From positions 42,577 to 106,576 of the forward strand of contig JAZRXZ010000021.1 in the NCBI GenBank assembly GCA_045600445.1: a DNA stretch of 64,000 bases. The letters are read 5' to 3'. Positions 11,108 to 61,378 of this stretch are shown piece after piece; the first letter of the stretch is position 1, and every line of letters begins with the position of its first letter. The notes below the pieces were generated by a model. It was not told where the DNA came from. It made no database searches and saw only the letters and a list, made by a program, of their open reading frames with translations. Origin of the DNA: Bacteroidales bacterium. GTDB taxonomy: Bacteria > Bacteroidota > Bacteroidia > Bacteroidales > UBA3663. The position numbers were made by a program, and so were the translations under genes.

Positions 11108-13501
11108 TTACTCAATCACTACCTCATCGTCTGGTGTAGCTACAATATTCTCCCAATCAACAACGGTGGCAGTAATGTTATCAATACCCGTCTTTTTCAA
11201 TACGAACTTATAATAATAGTTCTTTCCAGGCAGCCATTCTCCAATTACAGTAGAAGTACCGTTAACGGTGTGGGTACTGAGATTCGGAATCTTATAGACA
11301 TTTCCATCTGCAGTTGTGATCTCCATGCCTATCGTCTTAGTAACACTTCCTTCAGTATAGCTCAATGGCTGAGGGACAACGCGATATGAATAGTCATATG
11401 CTGGTATTGCTGGAGGTCCTGCTACTGCATCATGAGCATCAGACTTCATAGCTGTACCCGCGCCATCATCATAATTAGACAATTCTGTCACAAGTCCATT
11501 ACCCATCAGGAGCTTTGCGTCTTTTGCATATCGCAGGATTTTTACAGTAGCACCAGTAAGATTTACAGGGTTTGCTATAGTAGTTTCAAGATCAACAAAG
11601 ATATTACTCATCATGTGATGCTGTATCAACGTGATATTGTCTTTCGTTGCGCCTATAGCCTTATAAATCTGGCCTGCAGCATTAGTTTCAGCATTGCAGA
11701 ATCCTGTAATAGTCGAGTATTCCAAATTACTATCCTTAGGCTTGAAAGGAGCACCCCAAAGATAGTCGTTATCATCACTAATAGCACCAGACGATATGCT
11801 TACATAATCCTTAGGTTCAGATCCGTCTGGCGTTTGTACAGTCAATCCCGTATTAATAGTGCGGAAATGGTAGTATGTATCATTATTCGGCCATACCCAC
11901 TGATTGTTGCTTGCATCCTTTGCTGTATAAACTGTGCCTCCTATAGCCGACTGGGTTAATGTTGCCTTATTACCAGTTACTGTATATCCTGTATTCCAAT
12001 CATATTTAGCCCAATCATTATAATTGCTACCATTATATGTATTAGGATCTTTTGCTCGATATAAATCTACCTGAGGATCTGCTGTATTAACCGCAGTTCC
12101 TTCATCTGTCTTCAATAAAAGATTCACATAAGTATTTGATGGGGTCAGTTCATTCGCCTCAACGTTTTGCCATGAGGCAACGGTAGCAGTAATATTATTA
12201 ATGGCAGTTTTACCAATGGTAAAAGTGAAGACATAATTCTTTCCTGCCTCAAGAGGAATATAAGTTCCGTTGTTCGTTTTCTCTGTTGCTCCAGTCTTTC
12301 CCGTCAGCACATTGTACAACATACCAGATGTGATCTGATACTTATTATTATCGATGGAAAACTCCATCATAACATTTGTTGCATCATCTTTTACAAAACG
12401 ACTATGATCGTCATGTTGAGGAGTATCATAGCCCTGCATAAACTCATCAATATTAGGAACAACAAGTGCCTCTAATACATGTAGTGTTGCAGTATTAGTC
12501 TTATGATAGATCGAAGGAATATCACTATGATTATTAATCTGTTGGAAAATACCTTGCTGAATGCTAAAAAGTCCTTCAGTATTAAAGTTTGTCAACTTAA
12601 TATTCGTTGAGGTAAACTTAAAATCCGAAGAAGCATTATCTCCAGTCGTGATAAATCCATCACCTTCTTTAATATTGATAGTGATTTTGGCCATAGCATG
12701 ATAAAACCTCATCACATTATCCGTAGGGAATGTGCGATTTGTGAAATCAAACTTCAGGCTTTTATCACTTCCACCAAGACCTGTACCGCCATTTTCTAAC
12801 GAGCTAGCATTATCTACCAGATTATTACTGAATAGCAAGTCCTGACACATGACACTAGTTTCACTTTGTGCTCCTCCATCATGATGACTTGCTTTCCAGT
12901 TAAAAATAAGTGGATAAATAGGAGTAGTTTTCCAAACAATATTCTCTGTCGTCTCGTAAGGTTGTTTCTTATATGGAGATGGAGGATTATCACTATTATC
13001 ATCCACGGCAAAAGAGCATTCTGTCCAAGACATTCCCTTCTGTGCATAAGCCCAAATATTCAGTTTTGTGCTTCGTGCATGTGCATCATCCCAATACTTT
13101 TGATTATTTTCATCAAAAGTGACAGACATTCCACTATTAGTGTCATCTTTCTTCTTGACATCTCCACGAGAAACAGTATACTTAGGGTCAAGTGCAGTCC
13201 CCGTCACCTGATAGTCAGGATGAGATGTATCATATACACTCTTCATGATCATGAAGATCTTTGTATCTACATCAAATGGCTCCATATTGTCTGTGCCATC
13301 AGTAATCACAGCACGAGTCAATATGTTGCTCTCCTCACCCCCTACAGATAAAACAATAGGAGTTTTCGTTACAATCTCTGGCTCTGGTTCTGGAACTGGA
13401 GGTGTAACGACATCTTCCACACCGCCCTTATCTGCACAAGCTGCGAGAGCGAATGCAGATGAAAGGACTAAAAGATTGATATATAACTGATGTTTTTGCA
13501 T
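11108..13501 (-). CDS. Double-module fimbrillin-family surface lipoprotein
   Basis: 797-aa ORF with lipobox ALAACADK and ILTRAV (R63, 41 residues after the Cys). Motifs are RFYHAMAKITINIKEGDG and LIQHHMMSNIFVDLET. Module ends are ITATVASWQNV and ITATVVDWENI, with TYYHFRTI between the modules. Confidence 0.8.
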   Translation of the reverse strand: MQKHQLYINLLVLSSAFALAACADKGGVEDVVTPPVPEPEPEIVTKTPIVLSVGGEESNILTRAVITDGTDNMEPFDVDTKIFMIMKSVYDTSHPDYQVTGTALDPKYTVSRGDVKKKDDTNSGMSVTFDENNQKYWDDAHARSTKLNIWAYAQKGMSWTECSFAVDDNSDNPPSPYKKQPYETTENIVWKTTPIYPLIFNWKASHHDGGAQSETSVMCQDLLFSNNLVDNASSLENGGTGLGGSDKSLKFDFTNRTFPTDNVMRFYHAMAKITINIKEGDGFITTGDNASSDFKFTSTNIKLTNFNTEGLFSIQQGIFQQINNHSDIPSIYHKTNTATLHVLEALVVPNIDEFMQGYDTPQHDDHSRFVKDDATNVMMEFSIDNNKYQITSGMLYNVLTGKTGATEKTNNGTYIPLEAGKNYVFTFTIGKTAINNITATVASWQNVEANELTPSNTYVNLLLKTDEGTAVNTADPQVDLYRAKDPNTYNGSNYNDWAKYDWNTGYTVTGNKATLTQSAIGGTVYTAKDASNNQWVWPNNDTYYHFRTINTGLTVQTPDGSEPKDYVSISSGAISDDNDYLWGAPFKPKDSNLEYSTITGFCNAETNAAGQIYKAIGATKDNITLIQHHMMSNIFVDLETTIANPVNLTGATVKILRYAKDAKLLMGNGLVTELSNYDDGAGTAMKSDAHDAVAGPPAIPAYDYSYRVVPQPLSYTEGSVTKTIGMEITTADGNVYKIPNLSTHTVNGTSTVIGEWLPGKNYYYKFVLKKTGIDNITATVVDWENIVATPDDEVVIE

Positions 13502-13589: not shown

Positions 13590-13822
13590 ATGCAGGATGT
13601 GCTCACAGAGATTCGTGCAGTCCCTTCCTGCTTGCGGGAAGTGTTCCCAGTGATTCGTGCGGACCCTTCCTGCTTGCGGGAAGTGCTCCCAGTGATTCGT
13701 GCAATCCCTTCCTGCTTGCGGGAAGTGCTCGCAGTGATTCGTGCGATCCCTTCCTGCGAGAAGGAAGGGACGCCGTGCATGCAAGACATCCGTTCTTGCG
13801 TGCAGGATAGGACGGCACGAAT
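13590..13822. repeat. Tandem repeat array A: four 42-bp units plus a terminal 9-bp-stem hairpin and an inverted end motif
   Basis: ATTCGTGC recurs at 13611, 13653, 13695 and 13737, an exact 42-nt period. Each unit contains CCCTTCCTGCTTGCGGGAAGTG (CTTCC/GGAAG arms). The last unit ends in a perfect hairpin TCCCTTCCT-gcgaga-AGGAAGGGA (13747-13770). GCACGAAT, the reverse complement of the unit motif, lies at 13815-13822. The array sits in the 331-bp gap between two pilin-like genes. Confidence 0.9.
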
Positions 13823-13832
13823 TCAGATTAGC

Positions 13833-16244
13833 TTAGTTCTCAAGATTGATGTCTGTAGAGCCAGCGGTGACGGTTACCCATTGAGCTACAGAAGCCGTGA
13901 TATTTTCAATCTTGGTCTTTGAAAGCTTGAAAGTATATGTATAGGTATGATTTGGATACCAGCGAACAATCGCCTCATCTTGAACATGCTGCTGACCAGC
14001 CTGAGCTCCGACAACAGAAGCAGTTATCTTTGACAAGTCAGCCTCAACATAGTAGGTATTGCCATCCTTTGTGGTGATGGTAATACCGACGAGCTCTGCT
14101 GTTGTTGCAGCACCATCTCCAGTATGGCGATTCAATGCCTGAGGAATTACAGAACAGGTAAATGGCTTTGTCATAGGACTTTCTGTTTCCCAATAATCTG
14201 ATGAACCTGGGGCTTTAGTTGGAACTGAACCATCAACAGTTGAGCTAGGTGTAATCAAACCAGTTCCCATATCTACAGTTGCAGTAGTTGCAAGACGTGT
14301 AATGGTTACTGTTGTACCTGCAGAAAGATCAACCTTATCTGTACCAGTTGTGGTTTCCAAAACGATATTCAAGTTGCTCATCATGTGTAGCTCGGTGATC
14401 TTAATATCACTCTCAGTAGCAACGATACCTTGATGGAGGCTTGATTCATAACCCTTATCTACATCATATTTCAAAGTAGCACCATCGCCTGCACCAGCAC
14501 TTGTTTCTTTCTTCATAGGAGCACCCCAATGATAATCAGGAGAATCAGTACCTGCAGTCATTGTAAAATAACTCTTGCTGTCAGTAGTATTCTGAATATT
14601 TCCATCTTTAACGGAATTTCCTTCTGAATCTTTTGAATTAGCAGCCAAAGCATTTAACGTACGGAAATGATATGCGGTACTATTGTCTTTATAATACCAA
14701 TCTGTCTGATACTTACTAGCATTAGGAGCTGCCATTGTAGAAGTAGTTGCTGCACCTTCTGTCTTATAATCACCGCTATAATTAGTTGCAGTATAATTAT
14801 CGGTTGGCTTAGTTACAGGGGCTGTCAAAGTCTCTGCAAGACGATAGAACTGGAAACCTTCAGAACAAACAGTTCCTGATGCCGAGTACAAATCAAAGGT
14901 TACATGAGAGTTATTCATAGACAAAGAACCCTTAACTTCTGCCCAAGGAGTAAGTGTTGCGGTAATAGCAGCAATTGCGGTTTTGTTTACGGTAATTGAG
15001 AAGTTGTAATTCTTGCCTTGCTCCATAGAGATAGGACCAGTAGCACCAGCCAACATGCCATCGCCATCATTTGCGTCATACGAATTATTACCATTCTTAT
15101 CGTATGTCAAAGCGTCAAACAACATGTCCTGAGTTACATAATAGGTGTTTCCATCGATAGTAAACTCCATTACGTTGGTATCATCGCCATTTGTAAAGAC
15201 ATATTCTGGGAGCATCTGTGCCACATAAGTACCAGATGCATCTGTTTGGTCTGTAGTTTTTGCTAGAACATCAATATTCTTAACATTATCATTAGTTGAA
15301 CCAGCAGTTTTGTTAATGGTCCAAGTTCCAGTAGCAATATTTAAAGTACCCTTAACATACATGTTTAAGAGTTTTATATTTTCCGTAGCAGTTTTGAACT
15401 TAAAATCAGAACCTACACCTGCAGTAAATCCTTCTCCTTCAACCAAAGTAATAGTCATACGTGATAGTGCGTGGTTGAAGACAAGATGACCACGGTCAAA
15501 GTGACCAGGAGCACTGGTTAAGTCCTTAGTAGCGGCATCGGTATCAGTCATACCATCCTGATAGAAAAGCATCTGACCATCCTTATGTCCATTACTCCTA
15601 CCATTATTTTCAGGGTATGGATATCGGTAAATACCATTTTTTCCACCACTTTTAATATTATTACTATAAACTAAATCCTCAAGATCAATAGTCTTAGTTG
15701 GAGTATTTGCATCCGGAGCATCTTTTGTCTGTGTTCCTGTTGTAACCTGCCATGCTATGGTATTTGTGTCATCAGTACCCCAAGTAGTTTCTCCTGTATT
15801 TAGACCTGAGTTAATAAGCTCCTCCAAAGTTTTTTCATTATTCTTTAAGGAGTTACCGCCATTAGGAATTGCTACAGCATATACAGACAATAATGACTTA
15901 CGACCAAATGCATCATCCCAATAACGCTTATCACTTGTATTAAAAGTTACATCCGAATAATCATCTACACCAGAACCACCAACGGCAGCGGTGGCTACTG
16001 TTCTTGTATATTTGGCATTTGTTGTATTTCCTTTCTCGTTACCCTGAATACGCATAACCAAATGCGTAGCAGAACCTGTAAAACCTGCACGAGTGCTAGC
16101 CGCTCCATCGCTCAGCGAGAACGAAATCATCTCTTTCTGAGAATCTGGAATAGGTTGATCTACTGCGTTGACCTCATCATCGCTACAAGAGGGTGCAGCG
16201 AGAAGTGTGGCGGTGATTGCCAATGGATAGATGTACTTTTTCAT
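13833..16244 (-). CDS. Double-module fimbrillin-family surface lipoprotein
   Basis: The track ORF runs to 16412, but the signal peptide MKKYIYPLAITATLLAAPSCSDD starts at Met57 (cat at 16242-16244). The longer version would overlap the upstream gene. It has an ASTRAG site and the motifs LVFNHALSRMTITLVEGEG and ITELHMMSNLNIVLET. Module ends are ITATLTPWAEV and ITASVAQWVTV. Confidence 0.8.
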   Translation of the reverse strand: MKKYIYPLAITATLLAAPSCSDDEVNAVDQPIPDSQKEMISFSLSDGAASTRAGFTGSATHLVMRIQGNEKGNTTNAKYTRTVATAAVGGSGVDDYSDVTFNTSDKRYWDDAFGRKSLLSVYAVAIPNGGNSLKNNEKTLEELINSGLNTGETTWGTDDTNTIAWQVTTGTQTKDAPDANTPTKTIDLEDLVYSNNIKSGGKNGIYRYPYPENNGRSNGHKDGQMLFYQDGMTDTDAATKDLTSAPGHFDRGHLVFNHALSRMTITLVEGEGFTAGVGSDFKFKTATENIKLLNMYVKGTLNIATGTWTINKTAGSTNDNVKNIDVLAKTTDQTDASGTYVAQMLPEYVFTNGDDTNVMEFTIDGNTYYVTQDMLFDALTYDKNGNNSYDANDGDGMLAGATGPISMEQGKNYNFSITVNKTAIAAITATLTPWAEVKGSLSMNNSHVTFDLYSASGTVCSEGFQFYRLAETLTAPVTKPTDNYTATNYSGDYKTEGAATTSTMAAPNASKYQTDWYYKDNSTAYHFRTLNALAANSKDSEGNSVKDGNIQNTTDSKSYFTMTAGTDSPDYHWGAPMKKETSAGAGDGATLKYDVDKGYESSLHQGIVATESDIKITELHMMSNLNIVLETTTGTDKVDLSAGTTVTITRLATTATVDMGTGLITPSSTVDGSVPTKAPGSSDYWETESPMTKPFTCSVIPQALNRHTGDGAATTAELVGITITTKDGNTYYVEADLSKITASVVGAQAGQQHVQDEAIVRWYPNHTYTYTFKLSKTKIENITASVAQWVTVTAGSTDINLEN

Positions 16245-16279
16245 ATTTTGTTTTTTTATTATCGAGATAGAATTGTCTG

Positions 16280-17512
16280 TTACTTTTCGAGGTCGGTGCT
16301 CAACGAGCCAGAGATGTCTTGCCATGGCTGGAGCACGCAGGTGAAGTGGATCGGACGAGGATCGAAACGCTTCAGAACGATATAATAGGTGTAGATGGTG
16401 TTCGGCTCCCAAGTGAACTGTGTGGTGGTTGTGTTGTCTGGGAGAACGAGAACTATGTGCTCGTCATGATAAGTGACGTCACCGATCTTGAGCGATACGG
16501 TCATCTCTACATTCTGCTGTGGCATCTGAAGCAATCCGTCTGGCACTTCACACATATAAGCCTTGGCCTGCGAGGTGCACTGGTTGATCTGACGCTTCAC
16601 GTCGGGAGTAGTAGATCCGATGGCAGCAGTGAGAAGTGTCACGCCAGCGTCGGTGGTAGTCTTCGGTCCAAAGGCTCCGTCCATCATGCTGCCGGTGGTA
16701 AGGCCGGTGGCTTCATAGCCTTTGGCATCGGTGACGAAACCGCTGGAGATTACCTTGACCGTGACATCGCTGATAATTCTTCCGTCAGAGATGCTGGCTG
16801 CATCGTCATCGTCGCAATAAATACCAAAGCGCACTTTAGAGGTGAGATGGTGGAATGGCAGAGCGACAGAGCGGTTGAGCGTAGCGCTCGAAGTGTTGAT
16901 CTGCACAGGATTGCCGTCTGCATCATTGATGACATGGTCGAGGTCCTTGCCTGCTCCATCGCGTGAAACCTGTGCTACGAGATATGGCTCGGCCTGGGGT
17001 GTTGGCATAGACAACGTGCCTTCAGCGGCCGTCTGATAGCTGTAAGTCACCGTCTGTGGGATGGTGAGTTTCTGACCATCGAGCGTGAAGTTAGCAATGT
17101 CAGTATGTGCAGGACAGGGTGAGATGGCATGGAAACGATAAGGGAAATTATTGAAGTCCCAGTATCGCTCAATCTGCCTCTGGTAGAAAGATTCTGGCTC
17201 ACCGATGTAGCACCACTCTGAGGTACCATACCAATCGTTTTGCTTATACTGAACTTCATATTTGCCCATCACATCCTGTTGTTTGCTGCCAGCAAAAGCC
17301 TTCCAGCATGAGACGAGGAATCCCTGATTGAGGGCGCTGCCAGCACGGGTGCCAGCCTGCTCGCTCACATTATAGGAGGTGAAGCGCATCAGTTCGTTGC
17401 TCTCTGGTACAGAAGCCTCAGGCTCTTCGACAACTGAGTCAGAAGAGCAGGCAGATGCCAGCAGCGCAACGGACAGAAGCCAGGGAGATATTTCAGGACG
17501 AGAAAATGCCAT
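16280..17512 (-). CDS. Fimbrillin-family surface lipoprotein (single module)
   Basis: 410-aa ORF with lipobox LLASACSSD and an AGTRAG site. It has the motif LPFHHLTSKVRFGIY and the C-terminal strand FTCVLQPWQDI. It is visibly more GC-rich than the genes to its left. Confidence 0.75.
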   Translation of the reverse strand: MAFSRPEISPWLLSVALLASACSSDSVVEEPEASVPESNELMRFTSYNVSEQAGTRAGSALNQGFLVSCWKAFAGSKQQDVMGKYEVQYKQNDWYGTSEWCYIGEPESFYQRQIERYWDFNNFPYRFHAISPCPAHTDIANFTLDGQKLTIPQTVTYSYQTAAEGTLSMPTPQAEPYLVAQVSRDGAGKDLDHVINDADGNPVQINTSSATLNRSVALPFHHLTSKVRFGIYCDDDDAASISDGRIISDVTVKVISSGFVTDAKGYEATGLTTGSMMDGAFGPKTTTDAGVTLLTAAIGSTTPDVKRQINQCTSQAKAYMCEVPDGLLQMPQQNVEMTVSLKIGDVTYHDEHIVLVLPDNTTTTQFTWEPNTIYTYYIVLKRFDPRPIHFTCVLQPWQDISGSLSTDLEK

Positions 17513-47153: not shown

Positions 47154-47576
47154 TTAATGCTGCTTCTCCGCATATTCCCTCAACTTCATCAAAAGTCCTA
47201 CGATGATGGAGATGATGAGGACGCCAGAGGTGTTGTAGATGAGGTCATCGACCTCGAAAGTGCCGGTACAAGTATAGTATTGAAGGACTTCTATCGAGAG
47301 AGAACAAAGGAAGCCGATCAGGGTGACGAGCAGGAAATGCCAACGGAGACAGGTGAGCAGGAAGCCGAGAGGCATGAGAAGGATAATATTCAGAATGACT
47401 TCTCTCAGGATATACTGGCCATGAGAGATATAGGGATACTGCTGGATGTCCTTGATGGTCTGGAATGGCACTAAGCAGATGCGTGGTTCTGACAATGGCT
47501 CACGACCGAAGACGGTATAATAATAGACGATGGCAAGGAAAAGAACCGTCAAAATCAGGATAAATTTCTTGAACAT
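47154..47576 (-). CDS. VanZ-like membrane protein
   Basis: 140-aa ORF with 4 TM segments. NIILLMPLGFLL and SIEVLQYY..GTFEVDDLIYNTSG are typical VanZ motifs. Confidence 0.7.
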   Translation of the reverse strand: MFKKFILILTVLFLAIVYYYTVFGREPLSEPRICLVPFQTIKDIQQYPYISHGQYILREVILNIILLMPLGFLLTCLRWHFLLVTLIGFLCSLSIEVLQYYTCTGTFEVDDLIYNTSGVLIISIIVGLLMKLREYAEKQH

Positions 47577-47581
47577 GGGGT

Positions 47582-48052
47582 CTATCGCATTTTCTGATTA
47601 GCACCACGTTTTTTGCGAAGCTCCTGACGCAAGAGGTTGTAGTACTCTGGTCCTGCTTTACTTTTCGTGCCCCCCACTGTAGTACCGAGTTTTCGCTGGA
47701 AGAAGCGCCAGAGTGAATCATCGCTGGCATATCCACAGGCATGAGCGACTTCAGTAAGGGTTGCATCTGGATGCTCCTGAGTGTACTGCTGCACCTGATT
47801 GATGCGATACTGCTGAATCACGTCAATCAGTTTCATTCCCAGATCGAGCTGGATGGCACACGCTAATCTGCGTGCGTCGACATCGAGATATTCTGCGATT
47901 TCCTTACTCTCGATCAGGTGCGTCTGAAAGAGTGCATGTGCCAACGCGTTAACGATCGGTGAGGCTGTGTAGGTTTCAGCATTACCTGGATTGTAGTCAA
48001 TAACCTGCTGAAAAGTAGCAACTGGAAGGTAAGGATGTTTTTCTTTTATCAT
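47582..48052 (-). CDS. AraC-type helix-turn-helix protein (DNA-binding domain only)
   Basis: 156-aa ORF. The HTH_18-like region is SKEIAEYLDVDARRLACAIQ...TLTEVAHACGYASDDSLWRFFQRKLG. It has no sensor or receiver domain. Confidence 0.7.
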   Translation of the reverse strand: MIKEKHPYLPVATFQQVIDYNPGNAETYTASPIVNALAHALFQTHLIESKEIAEYLDVDARRLACAIQLDLGMKLIDVIQQYRINQVQQYTQEHPDATLTEVAHACGYASDDSLWRFFQRKLGTTVGGTKSKAGPEYYNLLRQELRKKRGANQKMR

Positions 48053-48250
48053 AATCCTGACATTAGGTTTGTGATGTTAGTATTCTGTATTTGTGAAGCT
48101 GACATTACGTACGTGTTGTCAGCTTTCTGTATTCGTGAAGCTGACATTACGAACGTGTTGTCAGCTTTCTGCATCTGTGAAGCTGACATTACGTACGCGT
48201 TGTCAGCTTTTTGCATCCGCGAAGCTGACATTACGTTCGTGATGTCAGCA
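48053..48250. repeat. Tandem repeat array B: four 42-bp units, each with palindrome GCTGACA-N12-TGTCAGC, plus one degenerate unit
   Basis: Units start at 48095, 48137, 48179 and 48221. The 7-bp arms are identical in all four units while loops and linkers vary. Loops contain ACGTACGT, ACGAACGT or ACGTTCGT. The degenerate copy is at 48053-48094. The SDR stop codon (48231-48233) lies inside the last hairpin loop. The array abuts the AraC start codon at 48052. Confidence 0.9.
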
Positions 48251-49262
48251 TCCACGGGATAAGATGCTCAAAAATCATTTTCAGATCATGTTTCGGCTGC
48301 CATCCGAGCTCAGTGAGCTTGGCAGATGAGAGCCGGAGACGGGATTCGGGAGCATAACCTTGCGTGTCATCGGCTTCGACACGCACCTGGATGGCTGGTG
48401 CGAAGTTGTCACGAAGGTATTCGGCCATCTGACGAGCAGAAATGTAAGTTGACTCATTGGCTACATTATAAGCCTCAGCATCAGCGCCTCTCAGCAAGAT
48501 GGTCAAGATGGCATCAATGGCATCAAGCGTATAGCAATAAGGCCGGGCAGAAGTTCCACAGGTGTGCAGGACAATGTCTTCTCCCAATGCGCCCCTTCGC
48601 GCGAACTGGTTGATGACGCGGTTGTCATCGAATGCCACTCCTACCCCAGTGGTCTGCGTCAGTCGGGCAATCTTAGCCGGTACGCCATATTGATGTACAT
48701 AGAGGCAACAGAGATTCTCGGCAGCGAGCTTGGCCATCGGATAAGAGCTGCGAGGACTCAGCGGATCGGTCTTTCCCAGCATGTTTTCGGTCACTGCGAT
48801 GCTATCATCGGTGATCTGGCCATATACCTCCAATGAGGATAGGAACACGAAACCCTTAACCGGATGCTGGAGTGAGTAGCGAAGCAGTGCGTCAGTACTA
48901 TAATATATAAAGGTGGAGGTTTCGACGGCATGCTCCACGAAATAGCGGCTTCCCGTCGGGGCAGCGCAGTGGATGATATAGTCTACATTGCCCAAGGAGC
49001 TATAGTCAAAGGTGCAGAGATCGCACTCTACGAGTTCTATCCGCCTCAGTTCGGACTCATCGAACATCGACAAGGCCTTGCTCCTATTTCTGACTGGTGC
49101 GATGATGCGAATATCCTGATTCAGAGCCAACAGGCAATGCACAAGCATAGAACCGATAAGGCCTGTGACTCCTGTAATCAGGAAAGTGCGACCTGCCAAA
49201 TCGCTACCATGCTGAAATTGGCTTGCAAAGTCTTGTTTATCTTTCTGGAGAAGTGGATGCAT
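48231..49262 (-). CDS. NAD(P)-dependent extended SDR (sugar-nucleotide epimerase/dehydratase/reductase)
   Basis: 343-aa ORF with the Rossmann motif FLITGVTGLIGSMLV and the catalytic YPMAK (YxxxK). Confidence 0.8.
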   Translation of the reverse strand: MHPLLQKDKQDFASQFQHGSDLAGRTFLITGVTGLIGSMLVHCLLALNQDIRIIAPVRNRSKALSMFDESELRRIELVECDLCTFDYSSLGNVDYIIHCAAPTGSRYFVEHAVETSTFIYYSTDALLRYSLQHPVKGFVFLSSLEVYGQITDDSIAVTENMLGKTDPLSPRSSYPMAKLAAENLCCLYVHQYGVPAKIARLTQTTGVGVAFDDNRVINQFARRGALGEDIVLHTCGTSARPYCYTLDAIDAILTILLRGADAEAYNVANESTYISARQMAEYLRDNFAPAIQVRVEADDTQGYAPESRLRLSSAKLTELGWQPKHDLKMIFEHLIPWMLTSRT

Positions 49263-61250: not shown

Positions 61251-61378
61251 GAGGCATTAAATTACTCTGCAAAGATAACTAAAAAGTAATTAGGTGAAAA
61301 GAAAAGTCAAGAAAAACTAATAAAAATATTAAAAATTGGCCTAATATGTCGATTTTTCACTGGTTGCAATAACAAATC

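Follow-up and report, generated by a model that had tools for sequence, protein, structure and literature searches.

Phased arrays of 42-bp palindromic units accompany a small AraC-type gene family in uncultured Bacteroidales and are candidate operators

Here, we report a tandem array of palindromes next to a small regulator gene in a 64,000-nucleotide stretch of DNA from a Bacteroidales bacterium (GenBank assembly GCA_045600445.1, contig JAZRXZ010000021.1); the whole of this stretch is referred to as the window. All genes of the window are on the minus strand, among them a cluster for Mfa-like fimbrillins and a long stretch of polysaccharide genes. The array (48053..48252, minus strand; TRF and pattern scan) is composed of four intact 42-bp units and one decayed unit beside the helix-turn-helix (HTH) gene. 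This HTH gene (47582..48052, minus strand) codes for a protein of 156 aa, a stand-alone AraC/XylS-type DNA-binding domain (Pfam HTH_18) that we propose as the array binder. On the other side of the array is an SDR gene for an NAD-dependent epimerase/dehydratase (Pfam Epimerase; 48231..49262, minus strand), the 3′ end of which lies under the first unit. A VanZ-like gene (Pfam VanZ; 47154..47576, minus strand) is located directly 3′ of the HTH gene and is syntenic in all close relatives. The space between the SDR and HTH genes is wholly occupied by the array, which also overlaps the last seven SDR codons.

In sense order, unit 1 (48224..48249, minus strand) reads GCTGACA-TCACGAACGTAA-TGTCAGC and encodes the C-terminus of the SDR protein, MLTSRT plus the stop codon; this stop, TAA at 48231-48233, is within the centre of the unit. 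The palindromes of units 2 (48182..48207), 3 (48140..48165), and 4 (48098..48123), all on the minus strand, are GCTGACA-ACGCGTACGTAA-TGTCAGC, GCTGACA-ACACGTTCGTAA-TGTCAGC, and GCTGACA-ACACGTACGTAA-TGTCAGC, respectively. The proximal unit, ACTAACA-TCACAAACCTAA-TGTCAGG (48056..48081, minus strand), is decayed, and 3 nt separate its end from the ATG of the HTH gene. An exact search of the window for GCTGACA-N12-TGTCAGC returned four matches (48098, 48140, 48182, and 48224) versus a mean of 0.22 in shuffled sequences, with none of the 100 shuffles reaching four, and TRF gave a period of 42, 4.6 copies, and 0% indels over 48057-48249. The first-pass annotation of this DNA had already described the four units, the filled space from the last SDR codons to the HTH gene, the stop codon in a hairpin loop, the four core octamers, and a fifth unit with decayed arms, and all of these descriptions hold. 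The true arm length is 9 bp (AAGCTGACA/TGTCAGCTT), and the 16-nt linkers between the palindromes repeat one another (TTCACRRATRCAGAAA). Units 2 and 4 had also been read as inverted relative to each other, which is wrong: the central dinucleotide is their sole difference (AA versus TT; TA in the other units), and the asymmetric flanks of the centre (TTAC...GTGT or GTGA on the plus strand) and the linker have one orientation in every unit, so that point substitutions suffice.

The array is locus-bound and is not a dispersed repeat. We scanned one genome per species (185,579 species) with a tandem-pair pattern of 21 specified bases and found it in one other genome only, a Bacteroidales metagenome-assembled genome (MAG), at the syntenic SDR-array-HTH-VanZ site (locus L001), where the array has 5+1 units. 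The same pattern gave one chance match only in JGI metagenomes, in eukaryote-like DNA. With up to two mismatches allowed, no GCTGACA-type copy was found in the 64-kb window outside the array (four matches, all within it); loose RACA-N12-TGTY sites in the window number 11 versus 5.5 expected, the surplus being the array itself. Further GCTGACA-N12-TGTCAGC sites, which the first-pass annotation had envisaged, were thus sought and not found elsewhere in the 64 kb, and the sole match of the species scan is the syntenic one. A REP-like or MITE-like dispersed repeat was rejected on these grounds. A TCAACA variant of the pattern had 20 matches in viral contigs, all by chance (lag-42 identity ≤0.44). 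One viral contig, L040 (IMGVR_UViG_3300045988_053605), carries dense GTCAACA/TGTTGAC repeats with irregular spacing at ~2120-2350; this cluster looks iteron- or operator-like and unrelated to the 42-bp arrays.

The HTH protein of the window has 51 homologues, ~150 aa long and all HTH_18-only; none was found on plasmids, and an exact-protein look-up of the window HTH and SDR proteins returned no record. Close orthologues (80-95% identical) on the metagenome contigs L003-L010 have the same SDR-array-HTH-VanZ order, and the window-type loci are L001, L003-L005, and L008-L010. Paralogues that are 59-66% identical to the window HTH protein have their own 42-bp arrays directly upstream, with other arms: TCTAACA/TGTTAGA in L017 (4.0 copies), GTCAACA/TGTTGAC in L023 (4.7 copies) and in L024 (3.7 copies, with a centre unlike that of L023), TTCAACA/TGTTGA(T) in L019 and L020 (4.4 and 5.4 copies), and TTCAACG/CGTTGAA in L025 (2.5 copies). 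The array of L022 is degenerate, a series spaced by roughly 42. Eight array types or variants (different arms) were examined at 15 loci, and every one is upstream of a member of the HTH family; likewise, every HTH-family context with an upstream gap has a 42-bp array of the 7-12-7 design, the L022 version being degenerate. At least four HTH gene-array pairs are present in a single MAG, GCA_045598885.1 (L001, L023, L024, and L025). In all families, the proximal unit is 3-9 nt before the ATG, and its type recurs before paralogues with other distal arms (L024, L023, L025, and L022). The unit beside the ATG in L024 is ACTAACATTACGAACCTAATGTCAGT, which is similar across paralogues, while the distal arms are family-specific; among four lineages, the proximal unit differs at 1-5 of its 42 positions. 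Unit number is polymorphic, i.e., 4.4 copies in L019 (3305-3489) versus 5.4 in L020 (2051-2277) with an identical HTH protein, and 4+1 in the window versus 5+1 in L001. Most members of this array family belong to gene clusters for surface polysaccharides in uncultured Bacteroidales. Our search of the literature on 42-bp Bacteroidales repeats found no description of such arrays, and phased 42-bp palindrome arrays linked to one small AraC-type gene family are apparently undescribed.

Sequence evolution of the units was evaluated in a covariation set of 29 distinct units from six arm classes. In the 7-bp arms, 98% of the cells are paired, and both partners have changed in five of the seven pairs. 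Covariation scores 0.557 versus 0.26 in shuffles, none of 500 shuffles reaching 0.557, and the score collapses in slid controls. Across families, the middle arm pairs (A-T, C-G) do not vary and the innermost pair hardly varies, with the ACA/TGT core found in 27 of the 29 units. Centre positions 1, 2, 4, 9, and 12 are unpaired yet invariant within the window family; the whole centre of unit 1 is identical in L001 and L003-L005, with one base different in L009. We then compared positionally matched internal units of L009 with those of the window or L003 lineage. The arms differ at 0-1 of 54 sites, the centres at 9-10 of 36, and the linkers at 7 of 36 (~20-28%), and four-fold degenerate sites of the flanking genes are 0.41-0.63 different among deep lineages. 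That the arms are near-unchanged while centres, linkers, and four-fold sites diverge indicates purifying selection on the arms.

The 42-bp period is free of indels in all arrays; the single visible linker indel (L019 versus the window) is compensated and the total stays 42, and copy number shifts by whole 42-bp units only. The locus is a mosaic. The SDR gene of the window is nearest to that of L001 (89-95% per 100 nt), whereas the stretch from the array start through the HTH gene is nearest to L003/L004 (94-97% identical), which places a crossover at the SDR 3′ end or in the first unit; a second change of affinity is seen near the HTH/VanZ border. The mosaic pattern indicates that the array and the HTH gene are inherited together.

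In the 156-aa protein, HTH_18 was matched at residues 52-128 (E = 8.5e-12, Pfam). Its AlphaFold 2 (AF2) model (pLDDT 86.6) has ~30 extra N-terminal residues and a C-terminal helix in addition, and the best Foldseek matches are the DNA-binding domain of AdpA (3w6v), SoxS, MarA (1bl0), and Rob, so the protein is predicted to have the AraC-type fold of MarA, SoxS, and the AdpA DNA-binding domain. We take one position of helix 3 to be the equivalent of the base-contacting R46 of MarA, an assignment from an alignment by eye. The residue at this position is C with GCTGACA arms, Y with TCTAACA, H with both GTCAACA arrays, and G with TTCAACA and TTCAACG.

Signals for transcription were searched around the arrays. 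No sense-strand TAnnTTTG was found between the SDR and HTH genes of the window, and the first-pass annotation was right in seeing no canonical promoter of this kind between the array and the HTH gene. The proximal unit has two weak promoter-like (sigma-70-type) matches to the consensus, which we do not take as evidence. Also in the proximal unit, TAGGTTTG at 48064-48071 (plus strand) matches the Bacteroidetes −7 box; it is antisense and aimed into the array, and since it is kept in L009 and lost in L001 and L024, it is probably fortuitous. At L019, the array lies ~40-250 bp upstream of a canonical TTTG/TATCTTTG promoter and is therefore likely untranscribed there. At L022 and L025, a candidate promoter is upstream of the array. 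These two loci have in common a ~90-nt stretch, GCGTTATTCTACGCTTCAAGCATTATATTTATAGCAGTATCTTTAT...GATCCATAGAAAAACACACGATCTTCA (L022, 2545-2650; L025, 2225-2330), located after the TAnnTTTG motif and before the arrays, that may be a conserved leader or a small RNA. A terminator scan found no site inside the window array; each hairpin is followed by UUCAC with no U-tract, and intrinsic terminators were rejected. Rfam at gathering thresholds gave no family in the array, and relaxed settings gave generic long-hairpin (miRNA-precursor) noise only.

We tentatively favor the reading, to which we would give a little under an even chance, that the array acts as duplex DNA, its helically phased units being operators or upstream regulatory sites for the AraC-type protein encoded next to it. 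Of the three roles offered by the first-pass annotation (attenuating RNA stem-loops, phased operators, and recombinase targets), phased operators are the one favored by the occurrence of all eight array types, at 15 loci, upstream of the HTH family. The reading is preferred because of this linkage, the co-inheritance of array and gene, the four-turn period, the constraint beyond pairing, the lack of a wobble signature (see below), and the array of L019 upstream of its promoter. As would be expected of an operator array, the cis sites are linked to a regulator gene across homologues and are inherited with it over the mosaic, and the fold of the protein, with two HTH motifs, is of the AraC type by Pfam, AF2, and Foldseek. 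We infer that the HTH protein binds the array with an effect on transcription. Each site would be a 26-bp palindrome, and the 42-bp spacing corresponds to four turns of B-DNA. The protein would occupy one face of the helix, at the proximal, family-wide site and at the distal palindromes specific to each paralogue, and occupancy would set the expression of the HTH gene itself (autoregulation) and that of the downstream polysaccharide block, either by activation of a promoter that we did not recognize or by a block of read-through from the upstream block. Changes in unit number by whole 42-bp units would keep the phase. The array and the HTH gene form one heritable module, usually heading a surface-polysaccharide block.

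Several points weigh against this reading. Proteins that consist of an AraC-type domain alone, e.g., MarA and SoxS, normally bind DNA as monomers, at asymmetric sites of ~20 bp; compared with such boxes, a 26-bp palindrome would need two molecules or another binder. At a spacing of 42 bp, 17-kDa proteins could touch each other directly only if the DNA were bent. The match between the helix-3 residue and the arm class is suggestive but comprises ~5 independent pairs, with common descent as a confounder. A hairpin would predict perfect Watson-Crick covariation just as well. Of the six polysaccharide-cluster contexts, four (window type, L017, L023, and L024) have the array directly behind the upstream gene or overlapping it and lack a sense TAnnTTTG; an array that abuts the upstream gene in this way, without a promoter, is probably transcribed and leaves an activator no promoter to act on. 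Finally, there are family members without an array, L011 and L012-L016. The operon of L012-L016 has the order DUF3987 gene, 308-aa gene, 164-aa gene, and HTH gene, with no array; L011 has a similar operon of a 307-aa gene, a 166-aa gene, and the HTH gene, and there is no DUF3987 gene in the stretch read. For the ~165-aa partner gene of these operons, neither Pfam nor NCBIfam gave a match. As DUF3987 genes typically occur in NBU-like mobilizable elements, some members of the HTH family may travel on mobile elements.

The array could instead act as transcribed tandem RNA hairpins in a long polysaccharide mRNA, with the HTH link being a matter of 5′-leader biology; this is the foremost of the competing readings, although we regard it as rather unlikely. 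The four or five stable stem-loops would have one or more functions: they would block exonucleases or mark a processing site, like REP elements in E. coli operons, cause pausing or attenuation between two gene blocks, or mask the start codon of the HTH gene; for masking, the proximal unit would be kept weak to let translation start. Consistent with hairpins, the arrays fill co-directional gaps, overlap the upstream stop codon, and lack a sense promoter; a candidate promoter upstream of the arrays of L022 and L025 places these in a leader, the proximal unit stands 3-9 nt before the ATG in all families, and the arm covariation with its 98% Watson-Crick pairing is what hairpins would give. The sense RNA of the array folds with −81.6 kcal/mol (z = −9.5), but the antisense strand folds better (−100.6 kcal/mol). 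A strand-specific G.U signal, sought to tell RNA from DNA function, is absent: A.C pairs (49) are more numerous than G.U pairs (20), and the mismatches show no sense-strand G.U excess. Independent hairpins would not be expected to keep an invariant 42-nt period with compensated indels or several invariant unpaired positions, and the L019 array upstream of a recognizable promoter, like the absence of a U-tract, terminator signal, or Rfam family, speaks against them as well. More improbable, in our view, is a minisatellite that arose from one ancestral operator or leader (the proximal unit) and grew by slippage or unequal crossing-over, the palindromes being produced by template-switch "quasi-palindrome correction" and the distal units having little or no function except as points of cassette recombination. 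Such an origin fits the whole-unit differences between strains (window versus L001, and L019 versus L020), the recombination breakpoint at the array start, and a proximal unit conserved across paralogues next to family-specific distal arms. However, drift and homogenization cannot explain arms that are invariant despite 41-63% four-fold divergence, and arrays of 2.5-5.4 units are kept in every examined paralogous context with an upstream gap.

That the units are targets at which a site-specific recombinase, either a serine invertase of the Mpi type or a tyrosine recombinase, mediates inversion or deletion is very improbable, and the suggestion of the first-pass annotation to this effect was unsupported and was rejected. 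It was based on ACGTWCGT, which is present in three of the four window units and resembles the putative core of the Mpi repeats, ARACGTWCGT, a string that was not found in the literature searched. The variation of copy number by whole units would also suit a recombinase. An Mpi-type inverton has two opposed inverted repeats around a promoter-bearing segment of 150-300 bp. The array shares with the Mpi invertible promoters of Bacteroides fragilis a polysaccharide locus and, in some units, an ACGT-rich core; unlike them, it lacks both a pair of flanking inverted repeats and an invertible segment with a promoter, its core is not conserved, and no recombinase gene lies close by in the window. Its units are self-palindromes that repeat in direct orientation with 16 bp between them, and they flank no segment. 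The core is lost in orthologous (L009 and L001) and paralogous (L019 and L024) arrays, the octamers in its place being GCAAACGC, GCGAACGT, and ACGTTTGC in orthologous and TGGAACCA and ACTTTTGT in paralogous arrays. The asymmetric positions have the same orientation in all units of the fully read syntenic arrays (six samples and one MAG, all as assemblies), and no recombinase Pfam domain was found in the 45 gene-like window ORFs of ≥140 aa that we scanned. We give equally little credence to a small repeat peptide, i.e., a 68-aa open reading frame (ORF; 48049-48255, minus strand) acting as a leader translationally coupled to the HTH gene. This frame is open in the window, L001, L003, and L009, and its TGA overlaps the HTH ATG as ATGA. 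However, the corresponding frame of L017 contains stop codons, for which the peptide was rejected, and L023 has an open sense frame without a start codon in the stretch translated; moreover, centre variation is mostly non-synonymous and the arms show no synonymous variation. The antisense frame is equally open, as open frames cross the window array on both strands (48035-48262, plus; 48049-48255, minus), a by-product of a palindromic unit of 42 nt or 14 codons. Gene callers put spurious ORFs across the arrays in public contigs, e.g., a 75-aa ORF in L010 (3-227, minus strand) and a 145-aa ORF in L020 (1830-2267, minus strand); these are almost certainly artefacts.

Returning to the operator reading, the closest comparison is with site arrays of AraC/XylS proteins, such as the marboxes of MarA, SoxS, and Rob or the inverted half-sites of AdpA (3w6v and 1bl0). 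They are alike in the fold of the adjacent protein and in having several helically phased sites upstream of the regulator's own gene. They differ in that known stand-alone domains bind single asymmetric ~20-bp boxes, whereas the array is made of 26-bp perfect palindromes in a strict 42-bp tandem of 3-6 units with paralogue-specific arms, often within a gene cluster and with no recognizable promoter. REP/BIME elements of enterobacteria (repetitive extragenic palindromes and the mosaic elements they form) are also intergenic operon palindromes able to form mRNA hairpins; REPs, however, are dispersed in hundreds with alternating orientation, while the array units are direct repeats of fixed period beside one gene family. 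In BrickBuilt of Porphyromonas gingivalis, the unit is 23 nt long, the leader and tail carry terminal inverted repeats, and each genome has 19 dispersed copies (PMC4596501). Like the array, BrickBuilt is an intergenic Bacteroidales minisatellite that may have a regulatory role; a palindromic 26-mer and a linked regulator gene are absent from it, and the array differs in its 42-nt unit, its single locus, and its lack of leader and tail repeats. UpxY is a NusG paralogue that recognizes paused polymerase via non-template DNA, upstream DNA, and a pause hairpin (PMC11685472). UpxY/UpxZ with ops-type leaders resemble our system in pairing a locus-specific regulator with a cis element that heads a polysaccharide operon, with several paralogous pairs per genome, but our system has an AraC-type DNA-binding domain and a tandem palindrome array. 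The array meets the defining features of none of REP/BIME, BrickBuilt, and UpxY/ops. A CRISPR array was rejected, the linkers themselves being repeated and no cas genes being present in the window.

On one flank of the array-HTH-VanZ group in the window is an ABC-transporter-type block (MatE, ABC-2 permease, ABC ATPase, IspD, GT2, Glf, and SDR), and on the other flank is a Wzx/Wzy-type block (LicD, acetyltransferase, glycosyltransferases (GTs), flippase, Wzy, Wza, and Wzc). At the other polysaccharide loci, too, a series of polysaccharide genes begins with the array-HTH pair. To our knowledge, little is known on how Prevotella-like gut Bacteroidales choose among their surface-polysaccharide loci, and we know of no well-described counterpart there of the invertible promoters or the UpxY/UpxZ hierarchy of Bacteroides. 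An AraC-type protein with a paralogue-specific phased array is a concrete candidate for such control of polysaccharide loci. A wider proposal, which we consider a long shot, is that these pairs constitute an unrecognized locus-specific control of surface polysaccharides in which the outer arm bases would be the address of each paralogue, pairs of one genome would cross-talk with or exclude each other, unit number would tune the output, and the arrays would be crossover points. Cross-talk or exclusion of this kind would resemble UpxY/UpxZ of Bacteroides. Paralogue-specific addressing, if true, would raise the interest of the system. Please note that the arrays are recombination junctions with a copy number that is variable between strains.

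Two further places in the window deserve mention. At 61251-61378 (minus strand), after an APH/choline-kinase gene and before a fused WecG-GT1 gene, there is a canonical TTTG...TATCTTTG promoter (61270-61277); in L017, an array-HTH pair is located in this same neighborhood, where the window is without one. A second 42-bp tandem array at 13591-13757 (~4 copies, unit TGCGGGAAGTGCTCCCAGTGATTCGTGCAATCCCTTCCTGCT) sits between the Mfa-like fimbrillin genes 13833-16412 and 11108-13501 (minus strand). Kinship with the array studied here was rejected, as the two have no significant similarity and the second has no 7-12-7 palindrome; no HTH gene adjoins it, and it is followed by a 9-bp hairpin at 13747-13770.

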